From: a virus
UHGV virus genome: UHGV-0271208
Direction: 5' to 3' (one strand)
Length of the DNA stretch: 25,010 nucleotides
A program made the translations under genes and the position numbers. Shown in pieces: positions 1-21,074 of the stretch (position 1 is the stretch's first letter; each line of letters starts with the position of its first letter). The notes under the pieces were generated by a model. It saw nothing but the letters and a program-made list of their open reading frames with translations, was not told where the DNA came from and did no database searches.

Positions 1-81
1 AAATACTCCCGCTATCAACTGACGCTAGTATAACGGAAGCAAATCATCTGCAATGCATTAAGCAGCAGGCAAATTGAGGAT

Positions 82-108
82 AAAAAAAACCCCCACATCA
101 TGTGGGGG
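82..108 (-). terminator. Putative rho-independent terminator (GC hairpin, T-run on minus strand)
   Basis: Inverted repeat CCCCCACATCATGTGGGGG at 90-108 preceded on the plus strand by an A-run at 82-89, which reads as hairpin then U-run on the minus strand. Confidence 0.5.
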
Positions 109-199
109 AAGACAGGGATGGTGAAGAAATCCGGCCAGTAACACAATGGAATAAAAGGATTTATTCTAATCTTCGTCTACATTTTGACTACACTTCGAC

Positions 200-225
200 A
201 AAAAAGGCCCCGTGCATTACGGGGC
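200..225 (-). terminator. Putative rho-independent terminator downstream of the 237-884 gene
   Basis: Stem GCCCCG/CGGGGC at 207-225 with a 7-nt loop; the A-run at 200-205 on the plus strand is a T-run after the hairpin on the minus strand, 12 nt past the stop of the minus-strand gene. Confidence 0.6.
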
Positions 226-236
226 TGCACACCGCA

Positions 237-884
237 TTACTTCCATCCACACGCTTTTTGAAGTGGCTTCAATGCCTCTGACAGACCAGCAACATCAAAT
301 GTCGCACTCACGGGACTTTCATTGTAAGGCGTGATCTGAGTAAACATTGAGTTAGCCTGGCTCAGCGCCTTGACGAACTCGATGACATTGCCACGATAAA
401 ATACCGATTTGGTATCGCTAGATATGTCCCATGTTTTCGTTTTTGCCTTCTGTTTATCCAAGCGAGATAACATCTGTGTTTCGTTCAACCCAAGATAGGT
501 ATCCCAATTGAGGAAAAGTTCTGTTTTTTTCTCGCGGCAAGTGATGTAAAGACTTGGTGTGATCGATTCCCCAAACTGCGACCGGAAAGAATCATTAGCA
601 GAAAGGCTAACATAAACATTCTCTGAATCATCCACGGGTGAAGTTTTCGTGGATACCTGCCATTTTCCAACACCTACTACTGGCTTAGCCTCTTCGGCTA
701 CTTTCGGTGGAAGAACCTTATCGTAACAAGCTAAACGCGCATCACTTTTTGCCTCGGATTGGCATTTCATTAATGCGTCATTGTTAATATCGGCTTTAAC
801 TGGTTCTACCGCATACGCTGTTGATACAGCAGAAGAGCAAAGCGCCATAGCAATGATTATCTTTTTCATACCATTACCTTTCAT
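237..884 (-). CDS. Secreted (periplasmic) protein of unknown function, cargo gene
   Basis: 215-aa ORF with an N-terminal signal peptide (MKKIIIAMALCSSAVSTAYA, likely signal-peptidase I cleavage after AYA). Its start overlaps the upstream gene stop as ATGA (translational coupling). No family recognised by eye. Confidence 0.7.
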   Translation of the reverse strand: MKGNGMKKIIIAMALCSSAVSTAYAVEPVKADINNDALMKCQSEAKSDARLACYDKVLPPKVAEEAKPVVGVGKWQVSTKTSPVDDSENVYVSLSANDSFRSQFGESITPSLYITCREKKTELFLNWDTYLGLNETQMLSRLDKQKAKTKTWDISSDTKSVFYRGNVIEFVKALSQANSMFTQITPYNESPVSATFDVAGLSEALKPLQKACGWK

Positions 885-1213
885 GATTTCGGGCGAGTAA
901 AGAAAACAAACATTCCGATAATGATATCGCCAATAACCCAGATGGTTCCCAGCATCATCATCCCCAGCCCCGTACCAATTGCGGCTCCGGCCCGTTCTGC
1001 GTCTGAGGCTGCGTTATTGATAACGTCACTACTGCCGCCAGCCCCGGCAAAAATGCAATAGATCATAAAGATGTTAAACAGGATAAATATCCACTTAACG
1101 ATCTTGCCAAAAAATGAGCGCTTCGGCTTTCTGACCTGATGGCCGCAAGACGGACATTTAAACGCTGAATCACTAATTTCTTTACTGCATTCCGGGCAGT
1201 TTACTAATGCCAT
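881..1213 (-). CDS. Zinc-ribbon membrane protein (CPxC...CPxC followed by two hydrophobic helices)
   Basis: ORF 881-1234; the likely start is the third ATG (1213), which has AGGA 4-5 nt upstream and gives MALVNCPECSKEISDSAFKCPSCGH, a zinc ribbon, followed by two predicted transmembrane segments. Start uncertain (1213, 1228 or 1234). Confidence 0.65.
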   Translation of the reverse strand: MALVNCPECSKEISDSAFKCPSCGHQVRKPKRSFFGKIVKWIFILFNIFMIYCIFAGAGGSSDVINNAASDAERAGAAIGTGLGMMMLGTIWVIGDIIIGMFVFFTRPKS

Positions 1214-1280
1214 TTTCCTAGACTCCATAGACATGGTTACATAACCGCCATAAAGCCTATCAGTTGATTTTGTTTGAATA

Positions 1281-1320
1281 AATAAAAATTAACCCGCCAT
1301 ATAGGCGGGTTATTTTAGAG
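1281..1320 (-). terminator. Putative terminator after ogr (bidirectional-looking hairpin)
   Basis: Stem AACCCGCC/GGCGGGTT at 1291-1311 with loop ATATA, flanked by AATAAAAATT (a T-run on the minus strand) immediately after the ogr stop. Confidence 0.6.
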
Positions 1321-1557
1321 TGCCAGCGATAACTGATCTTCGCCGTGGTGACTTCGTGGAAAAGCTTCTTGTGGCACCATCGCGCCGGGCGCTGGCTGGG
1401 TCTGGTTTAGTGAACCGTCTATTTCCGTCATGCTGGTGAAACAGTACCCGCACAACATATTTTGACACTGGTGATAGCTGCGTCGTACAAGCAAACTCAG
1501 CTCAACGCTGGTTCTGGTTTTTGCTATTGCACGGCAGCGAGGACAGCGCATTGCCAT
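1315..1557 (-). CDS. ogr: Ogr/Delta-family zinc-finger late-gene transcriptional activator
   Basis: 80-aa ORF with CPRC...RTS...YHQCQN.LCGYCF, matching the P2 Ogr / phage 186 B / P4 Delta signature (CPxC, RTS, YHQCQN, C..F). AGGAGG lies 7 nt upstream of the ATG. Confidence 0.85.
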   Translation of the reverse strand: MAMRCPRCRAIAKTRTSVELSLLVRRSYHQCQNMLCGYCFTSMTEIDGSLNQTQPAPGAMVPQEAFPRSHHGEDQLSLAL

Positions 1558-1605
1558 ACGCGGGCCTCCTTTCAGGACTGGTTAATATCAACGCAAGTAT
1601 AACGC

Positions 1606-2724
1606 TTAAGACGTTGAATCGTCACTCTCCGCTGTCCAGTCGTCGATTTTTACTTCCAGTTCCAGCGACGTGGTAAACCCTCCCCCGCCAATATCGTGAA
1701 CGCACCGCGTTATCGTCCAGTTCCCACTGTCGATCGTGGACTTAAAGCCGTAGACGCTGGCGGGCTGTTCCGGGTACAAATCTGCGCGGCCACGCGCCAG
1801 GGTGATGCTGAACGTAGCCGCACCGCGCTGCAACTCCCGCCACTTAGCCGCAGCGGCACGCTTCGCCGCCTTTTCCGTCTTGAAGGTTTTACGTATAACA
1901 AAAACGTTACCTTCGGCCCCGGCCAGATAATCACCCTCTTTTTTGCTGGATGCAGGCTCTTTCTTTTTGGCCTGGCTGGTTCGTCGCCTGCGGGTTGTTT
2001 TCTTCACGGTAGTGGATGGTTTCTTGCCAAAGTTGAGATCAAGCCAGTATGCAGTTACGCCCGTGTACGCGTCGCGGTCAGCTACGTTAAAGCTATGTTT
2101 ATCACCGCTTGACCGGACTATCTCGATCACCGGCAGCGGCTTGCCGCTCTGCGTCACTCCTTTGCCCGGCGTGATAAACAGAAGCATACCGTTTTTAATG
2201 GTTGCCACCGCGCCCAGCATTTCGGCCATGCGCGTTAAGAAGCTGATATCTGATTCACTCGTCTGATCGGCGTGGTCTATCTCAATCTTCGCCAGTTCTT
2301 CGCTGACACCCGCACGCAGATCGTAGCGACTGGCAATGCTGGCGACCACATCCCCCACGGTAATATCGTGCCAGCTATATTCCCTTTTCACGTTGAAGGT
2401 ATCGCGGAAATCTGCGCTTCTGGCACTGATCGTTAGCTGGTCAGGCGGGCCTGAATGACCTATCTCATCAACCGTATACACGCCCTTAAAAACCAATGGA
2501 TCATTATCCCAGCCCAGCGCCACCGATATCTTTGCGCCGCGTGGTGGTAATGCTACCTGCCCGTCTGCATCATCCAGAGTCAGATCCAGCGTGTCCGCTT
2601 CAAATCCCCGGTTATCTGTCAGGGAAAGAGAGATCAACCGGTTATCCAGCGCCGTAAGCTGATTACCTTCAATTTCAATACTGAACGCCGGGCGCGGCGA
2701 ATATCGGTTTTCTGTCGTGTCCAT
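1606..2724 (-). CDS. D: P2 gpD-like tail protein (phage late control D family, baseplate hub)
   Basis: 372-aa ORF with the gpD-family pattern (RLISLSLTDNRGFEADTLDLTLDD, ISARSADFR, an internal Lys/Arg-rich linker, C-terminal FTTSLELEV). Directly upstream of ogr on the same strand, as in P2. Confidence 0.85.
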   Translation of the reverse strand: MDTTENRYSPRPAFSIEIEGNQLTALDNRLISLSLTDNRGFEADTLDLTLDDADGQVALPPRGAKISVALGWDNDPLVFKGVYTVDEIGHSGPPDQLTISARSADFRDTFNVKREYSWHDITVGDVVASIASRYDLRAGVSEELAKIEIDHADQTSESDISFLTRMAEMLGAVATIKNGMLLFITPGKGVTQSGKPLPVIEIVRSSGDKHSFNVADRDAYTGVTAYWLDLNFGKKPSTTVKKTTRRRRTSQAKKKEPASSKKEGDYLAGAEGNVFVIRKTFKTEKAAKRAAAAKWRELQRGAATFSITLARGRADLYPEQPASVYGFKSTIDSGNWTITRCVHDIGGGGFTTSLELEVKIDDWTAESDDSTS

Positions 2725-2791
2725 ATCAACCCCTTCATCATGATGGGGTACATCGTCGCCACGCGCGCGCGCATGAACAACGCCCCGTCAT

Positions 2792-2809
2792 TGTTGCAGG
2801 TTGCTGACA
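2792..2809. promoter_or_regulatory. Ogr-type late-promoter dyad (TGT-N12-ACA) between divergent D and FI
   Basis: TGT at 2792-2794, a 12-nt spacer, ACA at 2807-2809. The centre is about 81 nt upstream of the FI ATG and about 76 nt upstream of the D ATG. A weak -10 candidate (TGATATT, 2846-2852) lies on the FI side. P2 late promoters carry TGT-N12-ACA centred near -55. Confidence 0.5.
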
Positions 2810-2881
2810 ACCCTTATTCATCGCATCAGCCTGCCATTGCCGCAATGATATTCGCAGTCATTAAACTGGCGAGGCAAATAC

Positions 2882-4075
2882 ATGGCCACTAACTACCATC
2901 ACGGTGTAACCGTCACGGAAACCACCGACCTTAGCACGATGATCACCGACATTGATTCGGCGGTGATCGGCGTTGTCTGCACCGCTGATGATGCGGACGA
3001 AACAGCGTTCCCGCTGGATACCCCTGTACTGATCACCCGCGTGGCTAACATGCTGGGCAAGGCAGGTAAAACCGGCACCCTGTTTACCACCTTGAAAGCG
3101 ATTTCAGACCAGACCAGCCCGCAAACCATTGTGATCCGCGTTGCTGATGCTGCAAATATCGAACCGCCAGAAGGCGGCACCGCACAGACACAGGATCAAC
3201 TGGTTATTGGCGGCACCGATGCAAACGGACGCTTTACCGGCATGTACGCGCTGCTGTCTGCCGAAATGCGCGTAGGCGTGCGCCCGCGTGTGCTGGCTGT
3301 TCCCGGTCTTGATACGGAAGCGGTGGCCGCACAACTCGGCGTCATTGCCGAAAAGCTGCGCGCGTTTGCTTACGTGGCAGCGAACGGCTGCAACAGCATC
3401 GCCGAAGTGAAGGAATACCGCGAACAGTTCTCCCAGCGTGAAATGATGGTTATCTGGCCTAATTTCATCTGCTACGACACCAACGCCGGAGCGAATGCCA
3501 CCGTGCCCGTGGGTGCCCATGCGGTTGGGATGCGCGCCAAAATCGACGCAACGCAGGGCTGGCATAAAACCATTTCCAACGTGCCCGTTAATAACGTGCT
3601 GGGGATGGATCGGGATATCTATTTCACGTTGCAGGGCACCGATACCGACGCCGACGAACTGAACGCAGCAGGCGTTACCACGCTGATCAAGCAGGACGGC
3701 TACCGCATCTGGGGATCGCGTACCTGCGACGCGGAAACGTATATCTTCGAAAGCTATACCCGAACCGCGCAGATCGTTGCGGATACCGTCGCCGAAGCAC
3801 ATTTCGCCTATGTTGATAAACCGCTTACCCCGTCGCTGGTAAAGGACATTGTGGACGGCATCAATAAGAAGCTGACCTCATATGTGACGGCTGGCAAGCT
3901 GCTGGGCGCCCGCTGCTGGTATGACCCGGAACCGAATACCTCGGAAACCCTGCGCAATGGTCAACTGACCATTAAGTACAACTACACCCCTGTTCCACCG
4001 CTGGAAAATCTCAGCCTGGTACAGGAGTTCACCGACGAATATTTCGCTACGTTTTCCAGCGCAGTGAATAACTAA
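2882..4075 (+). CDS. FI: Contractile tail sheath protein (P2 FI-like)
   Basis: 397-aa ORF; the N-terminus (YHHGV.V) and overall pattern resemble the P2 FI sheath family. GAGG SD 7 nt upstream. Followed by tube, E/E', T and U in P2 order. Confidence 0.9.
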   Translation: MATNYHHGVTVTETTDLSTMITDIDSAVIGVVCTADDADETAFPLDTPVLITRVANMLGKAGKTGTLFTTLKAISDQTSPQTIVIRVADAANIEPPEGGTAQTQDQLVIGGTDANGRFTGMYALLSAEMRVGVRPRVLAVPGLDTEAVAAQLGVIAEKLRAFAYVAANGCNSIAEVKEYREQFSQREMMVIWPNFICYDTNAGANATVPVGAHAVGMRAKIDATQGWHKTISNVPVNNVLGMDRDIYFTLQGTDTDADELNAAGVTTLIKQDGYRIWGSRTCDAETYIFESYTRTAQIVADTVAEAHFAYVDKPLTPSLVKDIVDGINKKLTSYVTAGKLLGARCWYDPEPNTSETLRNGQLTIKYNYTPVPPLENLSLVQEFTDEYFATFSSAVNN

Positions 4076-4087
4076 CCGGGGGCGCTT

Positions 4088-4603
4088 ATGGCACTGCCTA
4101 AGAAACTCAAATATTTCAATATGTTCTTTGACGGGGATAACTACTTCGGCATGGTGCCGGAAATCACCCCCGCCAAACTCACCAAAAAAACCGAAGACTA
4201 CCAGGCGGGCGGTATGCCGGGTTCGGTTGCGGTGGATCTGGGCTTCGACGCTGGCGCCCTGGATATGGATATCACGCTGGGCGGCATGGATGCAGGGCTA
4301 ATGAAAAAATGGGGCGTTACCACTGCGGACGGAATGCAGGTGCGCTTTGCTGGCTCTTACCAGGACGATGCGACCGGCGACGCCGTACCGTGCGAAATCC
4401 AGACGCGTGGCCGCTTCACTGAACTGGATCCCGGTTCGGCAAAGGTTGGGGATGATACTTCGCATAAGTACACCCTGAAAAACACCTATTACAAGCTGAC
4501 CATCAATAGCGAAGAAATTATCGAAATTGATGTGCTCAACATGATCTACAAAGTTGCCGGTGTGGATGTGCTGGAAAAACACCGCGCTAACATCGGCTTA
4601 TAA
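4088..4603 (+). CDS. FII: Tail tube protein (P2 FII-like)
   Basis: 171-aa ORF 12 nt after FI; size and position match P2 FII. Confidence 0.85.
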   Translation: MALPKKLKYFNMFFDGDNYFGMVPEITPAKLTKKTEDYQAGGMPGSVAVDLGFDAGALDMDITLGGMDAGLMKKWGVTTADGMQVRFAGSYQDDATGDAVPCEIQTRGRFTELDPGSAKVGDDTSHKYTLKNTYYKLTINSEEIIEIDVLNMIYKVAGVDVLEKHRANIGL

Positions 4604-4617
4604 GGAAACCCGGCACC

Positions 4618-4953
4618 ATGAGCAAGACCAAAGAAAACACCGTTATTCTTACCGCCCCTATTACGCGCGGTAAGACCAAAATCACCGAAGTGGCGATCAC
4701 TTCCGTGCTTAGACAGGCTGGATCACTGCGCGGCTTAAAAGCCTATGACGTGCTGACGTCCAACTATGACGCGCTGGTTATTCTGCTGCCCCGCGTTACC
4801 GCTCCGGCATTAACCGCCGATGAGATTGCCCGAATGGATACCTGGGATTTTTGCCAGTTAGCCAACGCGGTGGTTGATTTTTTGCAACCCTCTTCGGATC
4901 TGACCGCGACGGATACGGGCAACGAATCATCCGATGCCCCTGCGAACGCATAG
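4618..4953 (+). CDS. E: Tail assembly chaperone (P2 gpE-like), zero-frame product
   Basis: 111-aa ORF with AAGGAA SD; lies between the tube and tape-measure genes and contains a TTTTTTG slippery heptamer in frame. Confidence 0.8.
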   Translation: MSKTKENTVILTAPITRGKTKITEVAITSVLRQAGSLRGLKAYDVLTSNYDALVILLPRVTAPALTADEIARMDTWDFCQLANAVVDFLQPSSDLTATDTGNESSDAPANA

Positions 4954-5078
4954 AAGACCTGATGGCAGATATCGCCGTCATATTCCACTGGCGGCCGGTA
5001 GAGATGGACGCCATGACGGTACAGGAAATACTGTTATGGCGTGATCAGGCGGCTGCGCGCAGTGGTGGAGATCACTAA
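4618..5078 (+). CDS. E': E+E' fusion chaperone made by programmed -1 frameshift at T6G (4878-4884)
   Basis: The heptamer T_TTT_TTG sits in the zero frame at 4878-4884. The -1 frame stays open for 64 codons (ATLFGSDRDGYGQRIIRCPCERIEDLMADIAVIFHWRPVEMDAMTVQEILLWRDQAAARSGGDH) and ends at TAA 5076-5078, overlapping the T start as TAAATG. Same arrangement as the P2 E/E' frameshift. Confidence 0.6.
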
Positions 5079-8000
5079 ATGGCAGACCGCAATTTAAATA
5101 TCAGGGTGGCATTCAGCGCCCTGAATAATATGTCCCGCCCTGTCAACGCGGCGCGCCAGAGTGCCGCCGCGTTGGCGTCTCAAATCAATCAGACCAAAAC
5201 CAGCATTAAAGGGCTTGAGCGTCAGGCAACCAGCTTTGACCGCCTCACCGCAGCCAATAAAAAAACCACCGAACAACTGGCCCAGGCGAAAGAACAGGCC
5301 CGGCAAATGGCGGCGGCTTATGGCCCGTTACGCCAGCGCAGCGCCGAACAGGTTGCCGCCCTCAATCAGCAACGTGCAGCCATTCGCCAGTTAACCCAGC
5401 AGCAGAAAGGCGAGCAGACGCAGCTTAACCAGTTGCGCGCCAGCTTCTACAGCGAAGGCATTGCGATCAGCAGCGCCAGCCGGGCGACGGAACAGATCAA
5501 CCAGCGCACCGCGCAATACAACCGCCAGCTTGCCGAACAGCAGCGACGGCTTGACGCTGTTAACCAGGCGCAGGCCCGTTACAGCCGCGCCAAAGAAACC
5601 GGCGAAAAGATGATGAGCGGGGGGATGAAAACCGCCGCAGTAGGGGCGGCAACCCTCGCACCTGTCGCCGCTGCGGTTAAATCATACAGCAGCCTTGAAG
5701 ACGCCATGAAAGGCGTAGCCAAACAGGTAAACGGCTTGCGTGACGACAGCGGCAACCGCACCCCGCAGTATGAAGAAATGCAGCGGGCGATCATGGATGC
5801 CAGCGAAAAGCTACCAATGGCTAACGGCGCTGTTGACTATGCCGCCCTGGTCGAAGGTGGCGCGCGCATGGGCGTGGCAAACAGCGATGATCCGTGGGAA
5901 AAACAAAAAGCCGATCTGCTGGCTTTCGCCAGCATGGCGGCAAAAGCTTCGGTAGCCTTTGAACTGCCCGCCGATCAGCTTTCTGAAAGCCTCGGTAAGA
6001 TTGCCGGGCTGTATAAAATCCCTACCCAGAATATTGAACAGTTAGGCGACGCCATAAACTACCTGGACGATAACGCGAAGTCGAAAGGCTCCGATATTAT
6101 CGACGTGCTCCAGCGCGTTGGCGGACTTGCCAGCCAACTGGATTACAAGCAAGCCGCCGCGCTGGGTTCCACCTTCCTGACGCTTGGATCACCTGCCGAA
6201 GTTGCCGCCAGCGCAACCAATGCAATGGTGCGCGAACTATCGATCGCCACAGTACAAAGCGATAAATTTTTGGGTGCGCTGGATGAAATCGGCGTCAATG
6301 CTGAAAAAGTCCAGAAAAGCATGTCAGTGGACGCGATGGGCACGATCATTTCAGTGCTGGAAGCGTCCAAAAAACTTGCACCAGATAAGCAGGTAGCCAA
6401 CCTTACTCAGATTTTCGGTAAAGAGTTCGGCGATGATGCGCAGAAACTTGCGAACAACCTGCCCGAACTACGCCGCCAGATAGAACTGACGCAGGGCGCA
6501 GCCGCTAAAGGTTCCATGAATCGGGAATCTGATATCAATAAAGCGTCCCTTTCAGCTCAGTGGCAACTGACCAAAACCGGCGCGGTTAACGCATTGAGTT
6601 CAGCAGGGGAAACGCTCCGCGAACCGCTGATGGATATCATGCTTACCGTCAGTAAGGTGGTTGGCAGCGTCCGCCGCTGGGTTGAGGCAAACCCGGCTCT
6701 GGTTGGCTCAATCATGAAAGTCACCGCAGCCATAGGCGCGTTGCTGGTTGTCGTGGGTGGCCTGATGCTGACCATCGGCGCAGTGCTCGGCCCGATGGCA
6801 CTTGTTCGCCTCAGCTTCACCACGCTGGCTGGCTCCGGTGGGGTAACTCCCCTCATAGGCTCGCTGGGAAAATTATCCAGCACATTACGCGGGCTGATCC
6901 CCTCACTATCTGGCGTGGGCCGAAGTATTAAAGACTGGCCTGCCCTCTTCCGATCTGCTGCGTCTGGCATTACCCAATTTAGTAAACAAGCTATTGGCGG
7001 GTTAAACACAGCGTTAATGGCACTTTCACGCGGTGCTGTTGCTGCCGGACAGGGGCTATTTACCCTATTCACAAGGCCTATGACGGCTATAACCTGGCTT
7101 GGTAATGGCCTCAGAACTCTGGCGACCTCCGGTTTCGGCGCTTTGCTGAACGTTGGACGCACCGTAATGATGGCGTTGGGTGGCGGGTTATCATTACTTC
7201 TTAGCCCTATTGGAATACTGGTAATCGCTTTATCAGCAGCAGCGATCGCCGTTATTAAATTCTGGGAACCTATAAAAGCCTTTTTCACTGGCTTTTACAC
7301 CGGGTTAATGAGTGGCTTACAGCCTTTAACCTCAGCATTTAGTACAGCCTTTGCACCACTAGCCCCACTCTTTGACTCTATCGGTAATGCTGTCGGTGGC
7401 GTCTGGGAGTGGTTCACAAAACTATTCGAACCTATCCAGTTCTCCAGCGAAGCGCTAGCCTCCTGCACCAGTGCCGGGGAAACGTTCGGTAAGGTTGTAG
7501 GTAACGCTCTATCTGCATTAACACCAATAATCGAAGGAATAGCGCGCGGTATAGGATGGGTACTGGAAAAACTCGGCGCCATCCCCGACGCAACAAAAGC
7601 AGCGCAGCAAGCTGCGGAAAGTATGCACAAAGACCCTGTTGTCTGGGAGTGGGATCCGCAGCAAAAGAAAATGGTTAAAAAGGGTTGGAACTGGTCGCCG
7701 AAAGACGATCAGCAGAAGAAAACCAACCAGAAGCAACAGCAGGCCATTGACCAGCAGAAAAAGCAGGAAAGCTTAATTAACTCGCTCAAGGGCCCGGCCA
7801 ACATCGTGCCGAAGATGAGCAGCAGCCTGGATAAGATCGCCACCAATACCACGGAGAAGAAAGACGGCCCCGGCGAAATTGTCTTCAAGAATAAGCAGCC
7901 CTATATCCCGATCCGTGGCGGATATTCGGAACCGCTTAAGCAGGCACAGCGCCAGCTACCATCCCTTACCGATTGGGTGACGCAGCAGGCCGGATCGCTG

Positions 8001-8249
8001 ATCGCTTCCGTTACCCCCTGGCAGGTTGAGAAGCCCGCCGCACGGATGCCTGTTTCGGCGTCTCCGTCTGCGGCTTCCGTCGCTGCGCTGATGCCTGCTC
8101 CGGGTGGCGATGTATATAACCTTAACTTCGACTTTAGCGGCCAGAAACTGGATGAAGAAACCATTATCAGGCGCGTGCGCGAAGAACTTGCGTTAGCGAA
8201 GCAACAGGCCGACCGGCGCAAGCGCTCCCAACTGACCGATCACGTCTAA
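5079..8249 (+). CDS. T: Tail tape measure protein (P2 gpT-like), 1056 aa
   Basis: Long ORF right after E/E' with an Ala/Gln-rich coiled-coil N-terminal third, central Gly/Ala-rich hydrophobic segments and a Lys/Gln-rich C-terminal region; position and composition typical of tape measure proteins. Confidence 0.9.
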   Translation: MADRNLNIRVAFSALNNMSRPVNAARQSAAALASQINQTKTSIKGLERQATSFDRLTAANKKTTEQLAQAKEQARQMAAAYGPLRQRSAEQVAALNQQRAAIRQLTQQQKGEQTQLNQLRASFYSEGIAISSASRATEQINQRTAQYNRQLAEQQRRLDAVNQAQARYSRAKETGEKMMSGGMKTAAVGAATLAPVAAAVKSYSSLEDAMKGVAKQVNGLRDDSGNRTPQYEEMQRAIMDASEKLPMANGAVDYAALVEGGARMGVANSDDPWEKQKADLLAFASMAAKASVAFELPADQLSESLGKIAGLYKIPTQNIEQLGDAINYLDDNAKSKGSDIIDVLQRVGGLASQLDYKQAAALGSTFLTLGSPAEVAASATNAMVRELSIATVQSDKFLGALDEIGVNAEKVQKSMSVDAMGTIISVLEASKKLAPDKQVANLTQIFGKEFGDDAQKLANNLPELRRQIELTQGAAAKGSMNRESDINKASLSAQWQLTKTGAVNALSSAGETLREPLMDIMLTVSKVVGSVRRWVEANPALVGSIMKVTAAIGALLVVVGGLMLTIGAVLGPMALVRLSFTTLAGSGGVTPLIGSLGKLSSTLRGLIPSLSGVGRSIKDWPALFRSAASGITQFSKQAIGGLNTALMALSRGAVAAGQGLFTLFTRPMTAITWLGNGLRTLATSGFGALLNVGRTVMMALGGGLSLLLSPIGILVIALSAAAIAVIKFWEPIKAFFTGFYTGLMSGLQPLTSAFSTAFAPLAPLFDSIGNAVGGVWEWFTKLFEPIQFSSEALASCTSAGETFGKVVGNALSALTPIIEGIARGIGWVLEKLGAIPDATKAAQQAAESMHKDPVVWEWDPQQKKMVKKGWNWSPKDDQQKKTNQKQQQAIDQQKKQESLINSLKGPANIVPKMSSSLDKIATNTTEKKDGPGEIVFKNKQPYIPIRGGYSEPLKQAQRQLPSLTDWVTQQAGSLIASVTPWQVEKPAARMPVSASPSAASVAALMPAPGGDVYNLNFDFSGQKLDEETIIRRVREELALAKQQADRRKRSQLTDHV

Positions 8250-8258
8250 GGCAATATC

Positions 8259-8708
8259 ATGATGATGATTCTGGGGATGTTCCCCTTTTCACTGCAAACC
8301 ACACCTTACCAGAGTGCGAATAAAACCAACTCCTGGCGGCACGTCAAAAACGATCGCGTGGGGAAATCCCCGCGCTATCAGTTCATCGGCGCAGATGAAG
8401 AACCGTTCGTACTCAGCGGCACGCTGTACCCCGAAATAAGCGGCGGTGATGTGTCGCTTGTCATGCTGGAAACTATGGCTTTTTCCGGGCGCCCGTGGCC
8501 CCTGATAGAAGGCACGGGCAGGATCTACGGCATGTATGTAATTGAGCAGATCACGCAAAACCGGACGGAGTTTTTTAAGGACGGGAAGGCAAAGAAAATT
8601 GATTTCACGCTCAACCTGAAACGGGTAAGCGAGGACATACGGGAAAAGCTGGCTGAAACCACCACCGACGATCTCTTCTCTCTGGTGAAAACCAACCTTT
8701 CGATATAA
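8259..8708 (+). CDS. U: Tail protein (P2 gpU-like)
   Basis: 149-aa ORF 10 nt after T; size and position match P2 gpU. Confidence 0.8.
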   Translation: MMMILGMFPFSLQTTPYQSANKTNSWRHVKNDRVGKSPRYQFIGADEEPFVLSGTLYPEISGGDVSLVMLETMAFSGRPWPLIEGTGRIYGMYVIEQITQNRTEFFKDGKAKKIDFTLNLKRVSEDIREKLAETTTDDLFSLVKTNLSI

Positions 8709-8710
8709 GA

Positions 8711-8738
8711 AAAGCGGGCCATTGCCCGCTTCGTCTTC
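8711..8738 (+). terminator. Possible terminator after U
   Basis: Stem AAGCGGGC/GCCCGCTT at 8712-8731 with loop CATT, followed by CGTCTTCC (a weak U-tract). Confidence 0.4.
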
Positions 8739-8814
8739 CGTAATACACCACCATAACTGACCGTGCTACAGCACCGTTAAAAGTGACCGTACTCGATACA
8801 CACGGCCAGCACGG

Positions 8815-9141
8815 TTATAACCGGCCATGCGTGCCGGAATTCTTATCTCTGGTCGCTGGGAATTTTTTGTAAAGCGTAGATATCCCAACATCATAAATTA
8901 TGGCAACCCTCCGGCGCGATTCCCCTGCCGCTATTAACCTACCCGCCTGCGCCCATTGTTCTGGTGTAAGTTTGGGACGTCGTCCACCAATTCGTCCCTG
9001 TGCGCGAGCAGCTTCCAGGCCAGCTTTTGTTCGTTCAACAATCAGTTCTCGCAGGGTCTGAACGTAAGGCGAATCCTGGGAGTCGGTTCTTACTGCATCC
9101 TTTTCACTGGGGCTTGATGGGCCCAAGCGTGGATCACTCAC
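8815..9141 (-). pseudogene. Truncated serine DNA invertase (Cin/Gin/Hin/Pin family); C-terminal HTH part only
   Basis: 108-aa ORF with RELIVERTKAGLEAARAQGRIGGRRPKLTPEQWAQAGRLIAAG...VAIIYDVGISTLYKKFPA, which matches the C-terminal half of Hin/Gin-type invertases. The ORF begins at GTG and no catalytic N-terminal domain is found in any frame upstream (9141-9524). Confidence 0.7.
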
Positions 9142-9524
9142 GCGTCAGTGAGTGGAGCGCGTGTCTCAATAATGACCTCGAGCGTTTTGTCGATATTTTG
9201 GAGAGTCAGATTGAGCTCAGTAAGAGCCGCAATGAGTGGAAGGAGGTTATCTCCGCCGCCACCATAGCCAATGCCTCCACAGCTCTGGATTGGGGGATGG
9301 TTCACGAGGTTGCCGCCGCCACTTACCCGCAGGCACCCGGCACATACTGGTGGATTAACTGTTAACATAATTACCTCTCAAATTTAAATTGGGCAGAGAT
9401 GCCAGCATCCAGGCTCGCGCCTGGACGATTGTCTGATGATGAAAAGTGCAGTTTAATCTGTGGCTGGATTATCTGGATGCACTGGAGCTGGTTGATACCT
9501 CCAGTGCGCCAGATATTGAATGGC

Positions 9525-9935
9525 CTACTCCTCCGGCAGTTCAGGCCAGATGACATCCGGTGCGGTGCTGGTATCTGTTGCCGTCACAGCGTCGATATAA
9601 TCCAGCACAGCGTTAAGTCGGGTAGTTTCTTCTTGCGTCAGTTTACGCCCGGCCTGCAGCTTTAACTGAATCACGCTGATATTGACCATTGCTGCGTCTA
9701 ACAGCGACTGTTTTTTCTGTTCAGCATCAGCTACCAGTTCATCATGAGAACGTTCCGGAGGGAGCGGCGCAGTAAATACCCCGTCTGAATACCCCCAGCC
9801 AATTCCGGGATGCTCACTGATATCAGAAATATCAATGAGCTGCTGATTATCCGGCACTGTGAATTCAGCCTCGCCATCCCAGACAATGACATTCACAACC
9901 ATCTCATTTTCAATAACTGCATATGACGCATTCAT
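9525..9935 (-). CDS. Tail fibre assembly protein (Tfa; P1 U / P2 G-like)
   Basis: ORF 9525-9959; the likely start is ATG 9935, overlapping the fibre stop as TAATG, giving MNASYAVIENE. The C-terminal APDVIWPELPEE resembles tail-fibre chaperones. Confidence 0.85.
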   Translation of the reverse strand: MNASYAVIENEMVVNVIVWDGEAEFTVPDNQQLIDISDISEHPGIGWGYSDGVFTAPLPPERSHDELVADAEQKKQSLLDAAMVNISVIQLKLQAGRKLTQEETTRLNAVLDYIDAVTATDTSTAPDVIWPELPEE

Positions 9936-12649
9936 TATGCAAACTCCTCGATAATACAAATCCCATCAGCACCTTTCCCGCCTGTCATACTGGTTCCGCT
10001 ATAACCGGCATCGTATGCGCCACCGCCACCTGAACCATATGCCTTACCACTAACACCACCGCCAGCGCCTGCGCGTCCACCGCCCCCCCAGTACGATGTT
10101 CCGCCTTCACCGCTGACGCCGATATTTCCGGACTGACCGTCGCCACCATTTCCACCAGTGATGCTGATATCGCCAGTACTCGGCACACCTCCGTTACCGC
10201 CGTTTGTGTTTGTGGTTCCTACTTTTCCGGCACCTTCGCCACCGATAGCAATTAACGATGCGAACGAACTATAGCCGCCATTAAGGCCGTAATTTGCTCC
10301 AATACCACCGGCTCCACCTGCGCCGATAGTGACTGGATAACTATTCTGTGTCGGGGTCATTATTGAAATTATTGTTCCACCGGCCCCGCCGCCAGCACCG
10401 AAAAACGTTTCATTATTGGATATAGCCTGGCAGCCGCCCCCACCACCACCGCCACCCGTTATTGTGACCCTGATCCGTTTTGTTCCTGGGGTTGGGGTAT
10501 ACGTACCTGATGAAGTGAAAACCTGGGTATTCACCAAACGCCCAACATATCCGCTTGAATCGCTCAGGCCAAGGTTAGCAGCAGTTAAAGTAATATTTGC
10601 AGAACCATCAAACTTAACACCGTTGATAGTGCGTGCAGTCTGTAGTTTCGTTGCGGTTGCGGCATTACCGGTAGTGCTCTGATTACCTGCTTTATTCACG
10701 CCCGGCAGGTCGATATTGGCACTACCATCGAACGACACTCCGCCGATTGTGCGTGCTGTTTGCAGTTTTGTGGCGGTGGATGCATTACCTGTCAAAGATC
10801 CACTAAGAGCCACGGCACTAAGAGACTTAACACTTACATCCTGACCCCATCCGGAAACAACAACCTGACTCCACGCTGCCCAGCTTCCATTAACAACAAA
10901 GCGAACGTATATACGTTTTGTGTCGCTGTTAATCAGCGTTTGCATGTTCGCATAATCTGATCCCGTAGTCTTACGAATCGACTCTACACGAACCAAAAAG
11001 TTACCGCTTACGCCGTCAGGCTTATTGGTAATATTTGCACCACCTGCGACAGTTTTGCATTGATAGTATTTAACGGATCCAGCTTCTGTATTAGCAATAA
11101 TCAAGTCGTTTAAATCAATAGTCCGGCCGTCAATGGCTTCCGGCTCGATGGCTCCTGCTATCCCGGCACTGAATGTGGCAGCGGCTGAAAACGCTGTCTT
11201 ACCTTTGAAAGTCTGTTGAGAACTCCAGGTATTAGCTGTGCTCAACAGGGGGATCTTTTCGCCGCTGGTTCCGATTTCTCTTAAACCAAGGTATTGGATA
11301 ACAGCCAGTGTGCTTGTTTTAGCCAGGATATCGCGACCGACTGACGTTAAATCAGTCTGGGAAACAGTGTCTGTACCGGTAAAGTACGGCAATTTATTTG
11401 CGCCTGTCGCAAGACCAGCAAGCGCGGTTAAAGTTGCATCCAGAGGCTGTTTGCCTGCCAGCGCATTTGTCATTGTTGTCGCAAAGTTCGGGTCATTGCC
11501 CAGTGCTGCTGCAAGCTCATTCAGGGTATCAAGAGCTTCAGGTGATGAGCCGACCAATGCAGAGATAGCAGCTCTTACATAAGCGGTCGTAGCAATCTGC
11601 GTGTTATTCGTACCCTGTGCAGCGGTAGGCGCAGTAGGTATTCCCGTTAATGCAGGACTTGCTAAAGGAGCTTTAAGAGCCAGAGCATTGTTGATAGTTG
11701 TGCTGAAATTCGGGTCGTTATTGATCGCAGCAGCTATTTCTTTAAGCGTATCCAGAGTGCCAGGTGCACCGTTGATAAGTGCCGTTATAGCTGCCTTAAC
11801 AAAGGCTGTATTTGCGATCTGCGTGCTGTTTGTACCTTGCGCTGCCGTCGGCGCGGTTGGCGTTCCTGTCAGACTCGGGCTTTCTATTGGCGCTTTGGTA
11901 TCAGCCAGCTCTTTTACAGACTTAACGGCTTTAGGGGTAGCCGCCATTGTTTCGCTGTCGCTGTTAGTTGCGCTACTGAGCTGAACTAATCCCTTTTGTG
12001 TTGTGCTTGCATCCTGCGCCGTATACTTGCTTTTAGCCAGATCGTAGGCTTTTTTAACCGCCAGCGAACTTGCAGCGACATCACTTCTGGTACTGGTTAC
12101 AGAGTCGGAAATTTCAATGCCTATCGCGAGATCGATGCGGTCGGATACATCTATCATTTCCTTAGTAATAGCAGATACGCCAGCAGGGATATTCACCGTA
12201 CAAACAAGCAGTTCTCCATCTCCTAACTGATATGAATCGGTATAGGTTCTGGCAACAAATTCAGCCGCATGAATATGTGACGCGGTATTAACCTGATAAG
12301 AATCTTCTCCAAGGAGGTATCTTCCCTTCAGCACAATTGCATATTTCTTACCTGCGCTAAGTGCAAGAGAAATATCCTTACGCTGCTGAATAGTTACCTG
12401 GTAGAATTCACCAATATTCACTGACGCCGCGCCAGCGGTTTTATCACCATCCACTGAGGTGATTAACAGGTTCATCCCACCGCCAGGCTTAGGAAAAAAA
12501 CCGGCATAAAATCCAGGGTCAACAATTCCCCTGAATTTTCGGTTTAGCGCGGCTGACAGATATGGTTCGTGGTATTGCACATCAGCCACCAGAGCCAACG
12601 ACTCGGGTGATGGGTAAGTAACCGATGTGACAACTGTAACGTCATTCAT
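9935..12649 (-). CDS. Long tail fibre protein (P1 S-like) with Gly-rich C-terminal domain
   Basis: Contains repeated tail-fibre motifs (GLVQLSSATNSDSETMAATPKAVKSV, TGTPTAPTAAQGTNSTQIANTAFV, ALDTLNELAAALGNDPNF) and a C-terminal Gly-rich domain including GGGGGGGG. Likely start MNDVTVV at 12649 with AAGGA SD; the ORF track extends to 12736. Confidence 0.85.
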   Translation of the reverse strand: MNDVTVVTSVTYPSPESLALVADVQYHEPYLSAALNRKFRGIVDPGFYAGFFPKPGGGMNLLITSVDGDKTAGAASVNIGEFYQVTIQQRKDISLALSAGKKYAIVLKGRYLLGEDSYQVNTASHIHAAEFVARTYTDSYQLGDGELLVCTVNIPAGVSAITKEMIDVSDRIDLAIGIEISDSVTSTRSDVAASSLAVKKAYDLAKSKYTAQDASTTQKGLVQLSSATNSDSETMAATPKAVKSVKELADTKAPIESPSLTGTPTAPTAAQGTNSTQIANTAFVKAAITALINGAPGTLDTLKEIAAAINNDPNFSTTINNALALKAPLASPALTGIPTAPTAAQGTNNTQIATTAYVRAAISALVGSSPEALDTLNELAAALGNDPNFATTMTNALAGKQPLDATLTALAGLATGANKLPYFTGTDTVSQTDLTSVGRDILAKTSTLAVIQYLGLREIGTSGEKIPLLSTANTWSSQQTFKGKTAFSAAATFSAGIAGAIEPEAIDGRTIDLNDLIIANTEAGSVKYYQCKTVAGGANITNKPDGVSGNFLVRVESIRKTTGSDYANMQTLINSDTKRIYVRFVVNGSWAAWSQVVVSGWGQDVSVKSLSAVALSGSLTGNASTATKLQTARTIGGVSFDGSANIDLPGVNKAGNQSTTGNAATATKLQTARTINGVKFDGSANITLTAANLGLSDSSGYVGRLVNTQVFTSSGTYTPTPGTKRIRVTITGGGGGGGGCQAISNNETFFGAGGGAGGTIISIMTPTQNSYPVTIGAGGAGGIGANYGLNGGYSSFASLIAIGGEGAGKVGTTNTNGGNGGVPSTGDISITGGNGGDGQSGNIGVSGEGGTSYWGGGGRAGAGGGVSGKAYGSGGGGAYDAGYSGTSMTGGKGADGICIIEEFA

Positions 12650-12660
12650 CAAGCATATCC

Positions 12661-13095
12661 TTATGCTGTAGTCGTGTTTATGGCCATAACTGCGGTATAT
12701 GTTTTGCCCACATACAGCGAGTCTTCCTGGACACAAATAATGGCGATTGGCTTGTTCTCGTTATCCAGAACAACCAGAGTGTTGAATGGGTAGTTTTTCC
12801 CTTTCTGCAACTGGCTTTGATCAAGGTCCATTCGGACAGTAATTATCCCGCCTGAGTAGGTTGGGACGAGGTTGATGGTGCAAAATTTACTGGTCAGTTC
12901 TGCCAGCTCGAAAGCCTTTGGCAGTTCTCCAATCTCATAAGTGCCATCTCCTTTCTTAGTAACCAGTGAACTGGTACCGAAAACGGCCTTGCTGATTAAA
13001 AATCGAGAGCCTTTGTTAATGGACGATTCAGCGCGCCGCTGATAGTAATAGTCCAACAACTGACTCTTATAGAGGTTTGTTGAGACGTCAGACAT
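12661..13095 (-). CDS. Tail-fibre-associated structural protein (position of P1 R)
   Basis: 144-aa ORF ending 12 nt before the fibre start. Assignment is by gene order only. Confidence 0.55.
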   Translation of the reverse strand: MSDVSTNLYKSQLLDYYYQRRAESSINKGSRFLISKAVFGTSSLVTKKGDGTYEIGELPKAFELAELTSKFCTINLVPTYSGGIITVRMDLDQSQLQKGKNYPFNTLVVLDNENKPIAIICVQEDSLYVGKTYTAVMAINTTTA

Positions 13096-13173
13096 GATTT
13101 TCCCTAATCAATGTTGTGAAGCCTCATTGTAAGAGAAGTAACTTGTCACCCCGCCCTGCGGACGGGGTGATTG

Positions 13174-14013
13174 TCAGGCGTCGCTATCCAGCAACAAATC
13201 ATCTGCGCGTGTGCGATCAAACGTAGGTGTCGCTTTCACAATAGTGCCACCAGGCGTTGCGGTGATCGGGGCGCTAATCGACGTAACTCCAGTAAGCGAA
13301 GTTGTATCCGAAGTTTCAAACCAGCAGTACGCTTTTTCGGTATCAGAAATCTCGTTCAAAGTGATCATGTCGGCCTGTTCATTCACAACAACCGACAAAT
13401 AGAGCGTAAGCCCATCAAACACTATATGCAGTGGCAGTAGAGGCTTTACGAACTGATTAAACTTTCTGAGAATTTCTTCTGTAATTGCGGACTGATCTAT
13501 CGTGCCAGTAATACCCATTGTCCGGGCCAGGTCGTTTATGGGAATACTGATCATCCCTCTGGAAGTCAGAAACATCTCACCGAATGTGCCGCCGGTAGTT
13601 TCCAGTGTGCTTTCTGGTATTAGAACTGTGCCATAGGGATGACGTTCAAGGTCCACCGGTGCATATATCGGATCCCATAAAACAGAAATACCATTAAATT
13701 CGCGGTAAATTGTCTGGTTTATAGGGCGTTCAGTCCCCTTAAAGTGAATCTCATCAAGCCGCTGTTGTAACAACATCGGAACGGAAGATGAGTTTGAGGT
13801 TCTGATAGTAAAGAACTGGCCAAGTTCATTTGTCCTGGTCTCCAGATCCTCCTTGCTCATGGAAAAAATAGACTTCCGGTTGGTAATTCGCTCCAACCAT
13901 GGGTCAACAAAGGTGTCCATCATTGACTGAACCAAATCAGCCAATGATTTATAGAGCAATGACTTTTGCTTAGCTGATGTAAGCCGATTATTAAACCAGG
14001 AACGTTGCATCAC
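13174..14013 (-). CDS. Baseplate or tail structural protein (position of P1 gene 16)
   Basis: 279-aa ORF whose start overlaps the upstream stop by 4 nt. Assignment is by gene order. Confidence 0.55.
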   Translation of the reverse strand: MMQRSWFNNRLTSAKQKSLLYKSLADLVQSMMDTFVDPWLERITNRKSIFSMSKEDLETRTNELGQFFTIRTSNSSSVPMLLQQRLDEIHFKGTERPINQTIYREFNGISVLWDPIYAPVDLERHPYGTVLIPESTLETTGGTFGEMFLTSRGMISIPINDLARTMGITGTIDQSAITEEILRKFNQFVKPLLPLHIVFDGLTLYLSVVVNEQADMITLNEISDTEKAYCWFETSDTTSLTGVTSISAPITATPGGTIVKATPTFDRTRADDLLLDSDA

Positions 14014-15443
14014 TCCTCCTCATACGAAATATTAAAGGTGGAGTTTTCTGTATCCAGATAAACGAAATCGTAAAAGCCGTTGGACTCATTCCACTCGACA
14101 AATTCCAGATAAAAGTCGCGGAAATAACCCAGCGTTTCGATAAATGCCCAAACGTCTTTTTTCTTGATCAGGATGTACTTGCCGACACCGTTCGGATCAA
14201 AGAAATTTGAGTCGCGCCCAAATTTTGTTTCCAGTGCCGACTTCAACTCATCAGTCACGTTCTCAATAGTCAGGCTTGCCGATATCCGCCCGGTGATGGT
14301 TATCTTAAATGGTAGTTTTCTGACCTCTTTATAAGAGAATTTCTTGTTCAGTTCATTCGGTACCTTCTTAAAGGCAGTCAGGATCATTTCTTCAAGCTCT
14401 GACTGGCTTTTATTTGGATGCCATCCTGAAATAAATATCTTATTGATATTCTGAACATTATAAGCACCATCTAATTTCTCTTGCTGGCCTTCGCCCCATG
14501 CCTTTACCCAGGACAGCCCAGGGATGTTACGAACCAGAAAATACGTATAGTCCCCGCCCCATACGACCTGATCATCATAGGCAAGGTAATATTGTGCACG
14601 GTTACGTGTGATCTCCGTTGTTTCAGCATCGGTACCTGCGGTTATAGGTGTCGTTGTCTTAACTGAAATCAAATTAGCTAAATTAGCCGCAGAATCGACA
14701 GGCGTCAGGTTTTGGCCAGCAACCAGGGTTATATCGCCGTTGGTGCACCATACCTTAAGCGTAATTGTCGAACCTTCTGGCGGTATTTGCCCAATTAGCC
14801 CATCGCCGAATCGAACCCCCAACTGCTCGGATGGTTTATAAAACTCAACGTAGACCTGGCTTTTACTACCGGCTAACCGGAACATAGTGCTGGAAGACCA
14901 CTGCGTGGTCTTACCATCGGTCGTCACGAATACTTCCAGCTTATAGCAGACAGCAGTAAGAGCCTTTGATAACACGACTTCCAGAAATTCTTTGGCTGCC
15001 GTAACGGTATATGTCACCTCCTGGATTTCCAACTGTGCCACTTCTACCGTACCGGTGCCGTCAACCAACCTGCATACATCCATAGTCATGTAAGGGTACT
15101 GGTCGTCAGATATTAAAGGCATGTTTTTGGGGATTACCGCTGGAGCATCTTCACTTGTGGCGGTGATCTCAATCATCCCCGATGACGGTGTTGGCTTGGT
15201 ACCAACGTAACTATTCGTTTCTGCCGCTGCCAGGATAGAGGAACGCCGCGTCGCGGTCGATATAAAGCCTTCAGCCAGCGCCGCATCGGCATACTGAAAG
15301 CACCTGTAGACAATCTGGGTAATAAACAATGTCAGCATCGAGACAAATTGAGAGCCGACAAACTTCGACCAGAATGAATCTTTCTCGACAAGCTCTTCAA
15401 ACTCTGCACGAATACTGTCTTTAGTCGGTGTTGTTTTACTCAT
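14010..15443 (-). CDS. Baseplate protein (position of P1 bplA)
   Basis: 477-aa ORF translationally coupled to both neighbours by 4-nt overlaps. Assignment is by gene order. Confidence 0.55.
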   Translation of the reverse strand: MSKTTPTKDSIRAEFEELVEKDSFWSKFVGSQFVSMLTLFITQIVYRCFQYADAALAEGFISTATRRSSILAAAETNSYVGTKPTPSSGMIEITATSEDAPAVIPKNMPLISDDQYPYMTMDVCRLVDGTGTVEVAQLEIQEVTYTVTAAKEFLEVVLSKALTAVCYKLEVFVTTDGKTTQWSSSTMFRLAGSKSQVYVEFYKPSEQLGVRFGDGLIGQIPPEGSTITLKVWCTNGDITLVAGQNLTPVDSAANLANLISVKTTTPITAGTDAETTEITRNRAQYYLAYDDQVVWGGDYTYFLVRNIPGLSWVKAWGEGQQEKLDGAYNVQNINKIFISGWHPNKSQSELEEMILTAFKKVPNELNKKFSYKEVRKLPFKITITGRISASLTIENVTDELKSALETKFGRDSNFFDPNGVGKYILIKKKDVWAFIETLGYFRDFYLEFVEWNESNGFYDFVYLDTENSTFNISYEEE

Positions 15444-15799
15444 AGCACCACGTCCTGTGTGATAGTTATATCCCTGATACGAATGGATATTTTCAACTTA
15501 TCAAAAGCATCTCCCTCGGCTACTGACAAGCCAGAAATCGGTATGTCAGGTAAATCTACCGTCAGTTTTTGCAACAGCATTGCCTCAACCGCAATTTGAA
15601 CATGCGACAAGTTGGTCGGTTCGTGTTTAAACTGCGGTAAAACATTGCCCCATGACGGATCTCCGTATACCTCACCCTGATAAGTGTTTAGCCACTCATA
15701 TAAACGAGCGCCCCAGGCCTCCTCCTGGGACTCATACGTTTTTACGCCGGATAACTCCAGCGTCAGCAAAGGATCAATTTCGTTATTGTTGGCCATCAA
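15440..15799 (-). CDS. Small morphogenetic protein (position of P1 pmgA)
   Basis: 119-aa ORF overlapping the stop of the Sit-like gene by 4 nt. Confidence 0.55.
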   Translation of the reverse strand: MMANNNEIDPLLTLELSGVKTYESQEEAWGARLYEWLNTYQGEVYGDPSWGNVLPQFKHEPTNLSHVQIAVEAMLLQKLTVDLPDIPISGLSVAEGDAFDKLKISIRIRDITITQDVVL

Positions 15800-19485: not shown

Positions 19486-19566
19486 GATCTTATCGCCTAC
19501 CGTTTCGGTTTAAGTTTTTCTTCCAGTTTCTCCAACAGGAAAAACGCATAGGATTCAGTAAGCCTT

Positions 19567-20448: not shown

Positions 20449-20462
20449 CCTTGCTCCTTAAT

Positions 20463-21074
20463 TCAAAGAGAAAAACTAAAGCCCAGAAGGGAAGCCAAAG
20501 AACTTGAGGATTGGTTAAACGTGCTGTGCAATGCGAAGGTCATTGGGAATGACTTAAATTCAGTAACCTGATCTCGCGCATAGGTGACATCGCCGGTAGT
20601 GACCGGGAATACCGTCATCTCATTTTCCAGTTTGGTTATGCCGGAAGACAGCAACCGATAAATACGCACATTGAGCAAATATTTAGACGGTATATTCCCG
20701 GTACCGTCCGGATTGATCACCCGACTTTTTGCCGTCTTAAACCAGTCCAAAACGAGGCCATCAACGGTATCCCTGACCATCATTGTTATCTGCCCAGGCG
20801 AACGCTCCGTTGGCTGAAGGATATTCCCTCCGCCGATTTTAATCGTTTCATATTCGATGCTGTAATCGTGGTAGGTAATGTCTTTAGCAAAGAAGTCTGC
20901 CCCCTCCAGACCATCAACTTCGACAGAGAACTGCCATCCTTGCGCGAACAGCATTTTGTTCATGATGATTGACGTCAGCTTGCCAACTTCCCGCTCACCA
21001 ACGCCGGAGCCAAATAATGTCGTCGTTAATGCCGAAGATACATAAGACTTTACTGAAGCAACATTAAGCCCCAT
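20463..21074 (-). CDS. Putative tail tube protein (position of P1 tub)
   Basis: 203-aa ORF, 14 nt upstream of the previous gene. Assignment is by gene order. Confidence 0.55.
   Translation of the reverse strand: MGLNVASVKSYVSSALTTTLFGSGVGEREVGKLTSIIMNKMLFAQGWQFSVEVDGLEGADFFAKDITYHDYSIEYETIKIGGGNILQPTERSPGQITMMVRDTVDGLVLDWFKTAKSRVINPDGTGNIPSKYLLNVRIYRLLSSGITKLENEMTVFPVTTGDVTYARDQVTEFKSFPMTFALHSTFNQSSSSLASLLGFSFSL

Follow-up and report, generated by a model that had tools for sequence, protein, structure and literature searches.

A single Ogr-type operator between the divergent D and FI genes of a P2-like prophage and its predicted late promoter pair

The D/FI locus and its surroundings

The window analysed here is a stretch of 25,010 nucleotides of the virus genome UHGV-0271208, and its region of interest is the 157-bp intergenic gap between the divergent genes D, read leftward, and FI, read rightward (positions 2725-2881). 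Gene D (1606-2724, minus strand) encodes a tail/baseplate hub protein (PF05954, E=1e-18) that is 50% identical to P2 gpD, and it is the first gene of a leftward unit. Next in this unit comes ogr (1315-1557, minus strand), which encodes an 80 aa zinc-finger late activator (PF04606, Ogr_Delta, E=1.5e-13); the protein is 30% identical to P2 Ogr and the cysteine motif is aligned. The D-ogr unit is closed by a strong intrinsic terminator on the same strand (1290-1312), a 9-bp stem followed by a T run. On the other side of the gap lies the rightward late operon (2882-8708, plus strand) with the genes FI (sheath), FII (tube), E, T (tape measure) and U. The gap is thus flanked by morphogenetic genes on both sides, i.e. 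FI-FII-E-T-U on the right and D on the left, and a zinc-finger protein of the Ogr/Delta type is encoded in the same element.

This part of the window is 93-95% identical to the Salmonella phages SEN4 and SEN5 (Peduoviridae, genus Senquatrovirus) and 97-98% identical to prophages found in about 31 E. coli genomes. With respect to P2 the FI-U block is inverted, so that D and ogr are cut off from the PF operon and stand head to head with FI. The comparison of gene orders indicates that the D/FI gene pair was created by an old inversion of the tail module. The paper on SEN4 and SEN5 makes no mention of ogr or of an inversion.

The ogr gene has a predicted promoter of its own, a sigma-70-type sequence GTGACG-18-TATACT (1596-1625, minus strand) serving ogr only, whose -35 element is partly embedded in the 3' end of D. 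Most of the sampled lineages (junctions of loci L007-L041) keep its -10 element (TATACT, TATAAT, TAGAAT or TAAAAT) 30-38 nt ahead of the ogr ATG. A conserved -10 at this place in the D-ogr junction is also a feature of P2 Pogr, and we consider the two promoters to be counterparts.

The window as a whole is a mosaic with joints near 206/1291 and 10585/11201. Positions 1-206 are a chromosomal flank beside fieF, 94.7% identical to E. coli CX12, positions 1291-10585 represent the right arm of a Senquatrovirus-type P2-like prophage, and positions 11201-25000 belong to phage P1 (S constant part, R, bplA, sit ... ant1; 96-98% identity). The ORF for the tail fibre (9935-12736) is chimeric, with an N-terminus of the P1 S type and a glycine-rich C-terminus of the P2-like type. 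The joint between the P2-like part and the P1 DNA is spanned by no record in the E. coli and phage collections, and the mosaic prophage may be defective, perhaps not functional as a phage. Two cargo genes on the minus strand are found past the ogr terminator (237-1234), one for a VasI-like protein of the type VI secretion family PF11319 (237-884) and one for a zinc-ribbon protein (881-1234); both are missing from the otherwise matching prophage of E. coli CX12. After gene U, a DNA invertase gene (8815-9368, minus strand) is split into two ORFs, 8815-9141 (resolvase HTH) and 9138-9368, and this region is about 530 bp shorter than in CX12, where a Clp-protease-like gene sits.

The Ogr-type dyad and the two predicted flanking promoters

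The D/FI gap contains one predicted Ogr-type operator, TGTTGCAGGTTGCTGACA, a perfect TGT-N12-ACA dyad at 2792-2809 with its centre at 2800|2801. The earlier note had described this dyad as the only one in the gap, and a scan of 2725-2881 with 0 or 1 mismatch allowed found no other, i.e. the gap has a single site as does the PP/PO region of P2. The approximate distances given there, 76 nt to the D ATG and 81 nt to the FI ATG, are also correct, as the centre is 76.5 nt from position 2724 and 81.5 nt from position 2882. The Ogr protein encoded downstream of D is the predicted binder of this dyad.

The motif by itself is weak evidence. In the window, the bare TGT-N12-ACA pattern occurs twice against 5.4 expected sites, so it is not enriched, and the expectation for a gap of 157 bp is about 0.03 sites (calculated by hand from the window figures). 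Since motif enrichment in the window is uninformative, a comparative analysis was used instead. In the SEN5 genome, three of the seven perfect dyads fall inside the three late-promoter gaps, which together account for about 1.4% of its length (binomial probability approximately 1e-4, by hand).

A search with gpD yielded 52 loci. FI is divergent from D in about 45 of these, which come from about 20 enterobacterial genera, and ogr follows D in most. The hosts of the 52 loci include Salmonella, Citrobacter, Hafnia, Enterobacter, Pectobacterium, Photorhabdus, Xenorhabdus, Providencia, Morganella, Brenneria, Erwinia, Pantoea, Klebsiella, Edwardsiella and others. The D/FI gaps comprise 43 different sequences, most of them 140-180 bp in length, and nearly all contain one central dyad at about 80-83 nt from the FI ATG, in the form TGT-N12-ACA or TGT-N12-AGA (TCT-N12-AGA in Providencia). 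The distance between the dyad and the D ATG is more variable (55-100 nt). The gaps were reduced to 21 clusters (<85% identity) and read without gaps from the dyad centre. The dyad used as anchor was in most cases picked by its distance from the FI ATG, and in four gaps it was set by hand, a procedure that favours the register on the FI side and not that on the D side.

The one central dyad is kept in all 21 clusters. Half-site positions A7 and A9 are invariant on both sides (21/21), and the N12 spacer varies freely. C8 is kept in 20 of 21 clusters on the D side versus 12 of 21 on the FI side, meaning that the D-side half-site is the better conserved one. As judged from the alignment, location and conservation together mark the dyad as non-random. 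There are lineage-specific variants of the operator: the Providencia gaps (L016, L017, L043) carry a symmetric double change, TCT-N12-AGA within GTTCTC-N10-GAGAAC, which suggests co-evolution with the local Ogr protein, and a large group of Erwinia, Pantoea and Klebsiella loci together with P88 has an asymmetric dyad (TGT-N12-AGA or TCT-N12-ACA). A candidate second Ogr site over the CG-rich tract on the D side (TGT at positions 22-24, xCA at 37-39) was rejected, as one-mismatch matches were found at a few loci and the columns are unconserved.

The sequences flanking the dyad also show conserved columns, and the counts given here (n=21) are to be read as those of clusters that share descent, not as independent observations. 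The D side has T21 and T22 in 20 and 19 clusters, respectively, G42 in 17, A45 in 20, A48 in 14 and T49 in 18, and positions 34-35 are occupied only by C or G. On the FI side, C20-G21-T22-G23 is found in 17, 15, 17 and 20 clusters, A45 in 20, A48 in 21 and T49 in 20. Each side thus has a -10 signature (positions 44-49) and, separated from it by a 17-bp spacer, a partial -35 (positions 21-26); the elements of the two sides are equidistant from the centre, with A45 and T49 kept on both sides in 18-20 of the 21 clusters.

On the FI side, the predicted promoter PF has a -35 region TCGCAT (2821-2826, plus strand), at a place where relatives keep CGTGA at positions 20-24, and a -10 region AATGAT (2844-2849, plus strand). 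This hexamer is identical to the -10 of PO in the CX12 prophage, and PO resembles the FI side. An alternative -10, GATATT (2847-2852, plus strand), overlaps it. In the register of the mapped P2 starts, transcription from PF is predicted to begin at 2855-2857 (plus strand), leaving a leader of about 25 nt, as compared to 24-26 nt for P2 PF.

On the D side, the predicted promoter PD is composed of a -35-like hexamer TTGTTC (2775-2780, minus strand; positions 21-26) and a -10 hexamer GACGAT (2752-2757, minus strand; positions 44-49). The predicted start is at 2744-2746 (minus strand), 55-57 nt from the dyad centre in the register of the mapped PP and PO starts of P2, and the leader before the D ATG would be about 21 nt long (23 nt at P2 PP). 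The predicted PD and PF starts are about 111 bp apart, as in P2. The earlier note regarded the D-side -10 match as poor, and in fact GACGAT agrees with the consensus in only 3 of 6 positions. As an objection to a promoter, however, this does not hold, since the two critical positions of the hexamer, A2 and T6, are kept and the match is no worse than that of the proven P2 promoters PP (TAGCCT) and PO (GAAACT).

The order of elements on the D side, i.e. dyad-N11-TTGTTC-17 bp-GACGAT, is found at other late promoters of this phage type as well. Written out, the D side reads ACA-atgacggggcg-TTGTTC-atgcgcgcgcgcgtggc-GACGAT. In SEN5 and in the E. coli CX12 prophage, the PV promoter reads ACA-agggcgccgcg-TTGTTT-gcgcgcgcgcgactcct-GATACT and the PP promoter reads ACA-...-TATTGT-tgcgcgcgcgagcgcga-TAGCCT. 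The succession of dyad, N11..13, TTGT(T), CG tract and -10 is thus common to PD, PV and PP, and by this comparison the D side, which is almost a duplicate of PV and PP, appears to be one of the ordinary late promoters of such phages. The side of the PV dyad that carries no promoter lies inside gene S and has no T at position 49, and can be considered a small internal negative control.

The alternating CG tract

The D side is further distinguished by an alternating pyrimidine/purine run of 16 nt, CACGCGCGCGCGCATG, at 2760-2775. The earlier note described it as a (CG)6 tract at 2761-2772; the tract itself is real, but its exact form is different, as these positions read ACGCGCGCGCGC, that is (CG)5 plus flanks. 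Positions 2760-2774 of the run lie inside the 17-bp spacer of PD (2758-2774), and the remaining base (2775) is the one with which the -35 hexamer ends. In the 21 clusters the alternating run on the D side has a median length of 12 nt (range 7-16). The corresponding figures are a median of 4 nt on the FI side and 4.7 nt (maximum 6) in shuffled sequences. Substitutions in the tract, for instance of CG by CA or TG, preserve the alternation. It is the purine/pyrimidine alternation that is conserved and neither the exact sequence nor palindromy.

A similar tract, CGCGGGGCGCG, is located at the same place in the PP spacer of P2. P/O gaps taken from viral contigs (9 clusters) each have one dyad flanked by a -10 in either direction, and the CG tract is restricted to the P side. 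Judging from these alignments, the CG tract is the conserved -35/-10 spacer of the PD/PV/PP class of promoters and not a separate element. We could find no description of a conserved alternating CG spacer in the searchable literature. As to its role, the GC-rich spacer probably keeps promoters of this class weak and dependent on the activator. Weak, activator-dependent promoters would be in keeping with products made in few copies (D, portal and terminase, baseplate), and the CG tract is mostly confined to promoters of such low-copy products (PD, PP and PV). Taken as a strict mark of low-copy promoters the tract fails, as the FI side of P88 also has a short one, TACGCGCGTG; there is a tendency here and no rule.

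The alternating CG spacer is the only feature of this locus that may hide something new. The tract is a CG-rich alternating run of the length (about 10-12 bp or more) at which DNA becomes prone to adopt the Z form, and we speculate that it might be a supercoiling-sensitive element prone to a B-to-Z transition rather than a passive GC-rich spacer. The tract would lie between two diverging polymerases, where negative supercoils accumulate, and heavy transcription from the strong partner promoter (PF or PO) would alter the geometry of the spacer and thereby throttle or time the weak PD or PP. If this were the case, the low D:sheath and terminase:capsid ratios would be set by the tract. It has long been known that late transcription of P2 depends on DNA replication, and a tract of this kind might contribute to that dependence. 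This idea is highly speculative and we think it quite unlikely to be correct; the reading of the tract as the GC-rich spacer of a weak promoter class is the one we follow below.

Precedents, proposed mechanism and competing explanations

It is useful to compare the D/FI gap with the late promoters of P2. The reference record of P2 shows a single "activator binding site; pO, pP promoters" at 3057-3087 and mapped starts at 3016 (minus strand) and 3127 (plus strand), 111 bp apart. The dyad at this site is TGT-N12-CCA; its centre, at 3071.5, is exactly 55.5 bp away from either start, and the -10 hexamers of PP and PO are at positions 44-49, i.e. in the same register as GACGAT and AATGAT on the D and FI sides here. 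One site for two divergent late promoters is thus an established design of P2. The similarities extend to the number of dyads (one), the length of the divergent gap (about 150 bp), the distance to each start (about 55.5 bp, predicted here) and the presence of a CG-rich spacer on one side only, namely the P side in P2 and the D side here. The differences are that the gene pair is D/FI instead of P/O, that the dyad is perfect here (ACA) and has CCA in P2, and that the starts are mapped in P2 and predicted here.

The FI side is the positional homologue of P2 PF, with a -10 about 45-50 nt from the dyad centre and a leader of comparable length. TTGT-N12-ACAACC is found 90 nt before the FI ATG here and TTGT-N12-CCAACC 91 nt before it at P2 PF. 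P2 has no promoter before D, which is the last gene of its PF operon (FI-FII-E-T-U-D). In the clade of the present element, where FI-U is inverted relative to D-ogr, neither D nor ogr is within reach of PF any longer, and a second, predicted promoter stands on the opposite side of the PF operator. The PV and PP promoters of Senquatrovirus-type phages (SEN4/SEN5 and the CX12 prophage) correspond in layout to the D side almost base for base, but they drive the V and P operons, and PV is unidirectional. Phage P88 (genus Xuanwuvirus) shares the inverted module, and its D/FI and P/O gaps both show the register described here.

P4 Delta, 186 B and PSP3 Pag are activators of the same family, and the late promoters that respond to them have the consensus TGT-N12-ACA as well. 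In the Stenotrophomonas phage Smp131, the authors assigned PP' and PO' to a single common dyad (PMC3931495). All of these promoters belong to other hosts and, so far as the searchable literature goes, to gene pairs other than D/FI. We found nothing on a D/FI promoter in the searchable literature (Ogr late promoters, TGT-N12-ACA, SEN4/SEN5, xenorhabdicin).

From the dyad, its conservation, the -10/-35 register to its left and right and the likeness of the D side to PV and PP we infer that the D/FI gap is a mirror-symmetric, bidirectional pair of Ogr-dependent late promoters, PD and PF, that share one operator, a reading to which we assign a probability of about 0.8. According to this model, the sigma-70-type promoter directly in front of ogr would supply the first Ogr, which would then bind the single dyad at 2792-2809, the centre of which is about 55.5 bp upstream of the two predicted starts. 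PF (start near 2856) would drive FI-FII-E-T-U rightward, and PD (start near 2745) would drive D leftward. Transcription from PD would read on into ogr as far as the terminator at 1290-1312 and provide positive feedback, which is the logic of P2, where PF reads through D into ogr. Activation of P2 late promoters involves a contact with the alpha subunit of RNA polymerase (rpoA109 and Ogr), and by analogy with PP and PO, a site at -55 for both promoters would recruit RNA polymerase via this subunit. The idea put forward in the earlier note, namely that one palindromic Ogr site could drive D and FI in both directions, is thereby supported in silico, both by the P2 PP/PO precedent and the approximately 45 loci and by the -10 elements at 44-49 on both sides and the likeness of PD to PV and PP.

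The main competing explanation concerns the D side. The dyad may serve PF only, as in P2, in which case D (and ogr) would be transcribed from an Ogr-independent sigma-70 promoter, TTGTTC-17-GACGAT, that adjoins the dyad by chance. A TTG -35 at the ideal 17-bp spacing could allow the D side to fire without Ogr, the TT(G) of the -35 and the spacer length are kept, and many relatives have a TG one base before the -10. In addition, ogr is located downstream of D and must be expressed before the late genes. This last argument is weakened by the fact that ogr has a conserved promoter of its own, so that PD need not start the cascade and an early promoter in the D/FI gap is not required. Moreover, PV and PP, whose late operons are strictly structural, have the same layout of TTGT, CG tract and -10, and in 21 clusters the -10 and -35 stand in an indel-free register with the dyad, which would be unexpected if the two were unrelated. 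It is also the D-side half-site that is the better conserved one (C8, 20/21 versus 12/21). We therefore consider an Ogr-independent D promoter unlikely.

Two further possibilities dispense with either the leftward promoter or the operator. It could be argued that there is no leftward promoter at all, that D is silent or transcribed from elsewhere, and that the CG tract is the site of another regulator or a piece of structural DNA; the -10 of PD is weak, the tract is the most eye-catching conserved feature, and in some lineages it is near-palindromic (e.g. TACGCGCGCGTA in L008). However, in no locus does another gene stand between the gap and D, and there is no upstream gene on the same strand from which read-through could come, A45 and T49 are kept at the correct distance from the dyad, it is the alternation of the tract and not its palindromy that is conserved, and P2 PP has a mapped start in spite of a similar spacer (CGCGGGGCGCG). 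We find this explanation very improbable. Hardly any more credence can be given to the view that the dyad itself arose as a palindrome by chance, forms a small hairpin or terminator, belongs to a small ORF or is the crossover site of the FI-U inversion. The motif count in the window is below chance expectation, GGTTGCTGACAACC (2799-2812) was flagged in a scan as a weak terminator-like stem, small ORFs are annotated across the gap in SEN5 and P88, and an invertase gene lies beyond U; on the other hand, invariant half-sites around a variable N12 without a conserved stem are not what these origins predict, and the orientation of FI-U is fixed in about 45 loci, which speaks for an old inversion and not for a switch.

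The individual candidates behind this last explanation were rejected one by one. The stem of the hairpin at 2799-2812 is unconserved and has no T run. A small protein encoded in the gap (SEN5_27, P88 gp50) is contradicted by the longest ORFs, which change strand and start among relatives. The annotated gap ORFs of SEN5 (20707-20859 in L001) and P88 (33155-33286 in L056) are on opposite strands, and by the sequence comparison both are probably annotation artefacts. A search for structured RNA gave no Rfam match in positions 1-9500. As for an invertase crossover site, the orientation of the module is fixed in all loci, and by eye the dyad is unlike the Hin/Gin/Cin sites; these sites have a central AACC..GGTT core, and no such core is apparent by eye in the dyad.

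A promoter pair PD/PF of the kind proposed here would explain how D and ogr can have stayed under late control in a large clade in which the old inversion separated them from the PF operon. Members of this clade are P2-like phages of the genera Senquatrovirus and Xuanwuvirus, and presumably also P2-type loci of the tailocin kind (xenorhabdicin, photorhabdicin) in Xenorhabdus, Photorhabdus and Pectobacterium. As a reuse of the one-site, two-promoter design of P2 PP/PO at a different gene pair, the D/FI gap is a well supported, if unsurprising, new example. Exact coordinates for both promoters are given above, and a clade-wide consensus (half-site at 7-9, -35 at 21-26 and -10 at 44-49 from the dyad centre) may be of use in annotation pipelines.

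The same register draws attention to some annotated gene starts in the P/O region. In Senquatrovirus-type phages, the ATG of the terminase gene P is annotated 55-56 nt from the dyad centre, i.e. exactly at the predicted PP start (TAGCCT-gttgcc-ATG; 33233-33291 in L055, also in L057, L077, L081, L099 and L102). It follows that either the P mRNA has no leader or its start codon has been mis-called; in P2 the leader is 23 nt long. The scaffold gene O of SEN5 (2993-3091 in L001) has its annotated start 44 nt from the centre of the P/O dyad, upstream of the predicted PO start. Its orthologue in CX12 is called 54 nt shorter by RefSeq, which results in a gap of 153 bp, and the start of the SEN5 gene has probably been called too far upstream.
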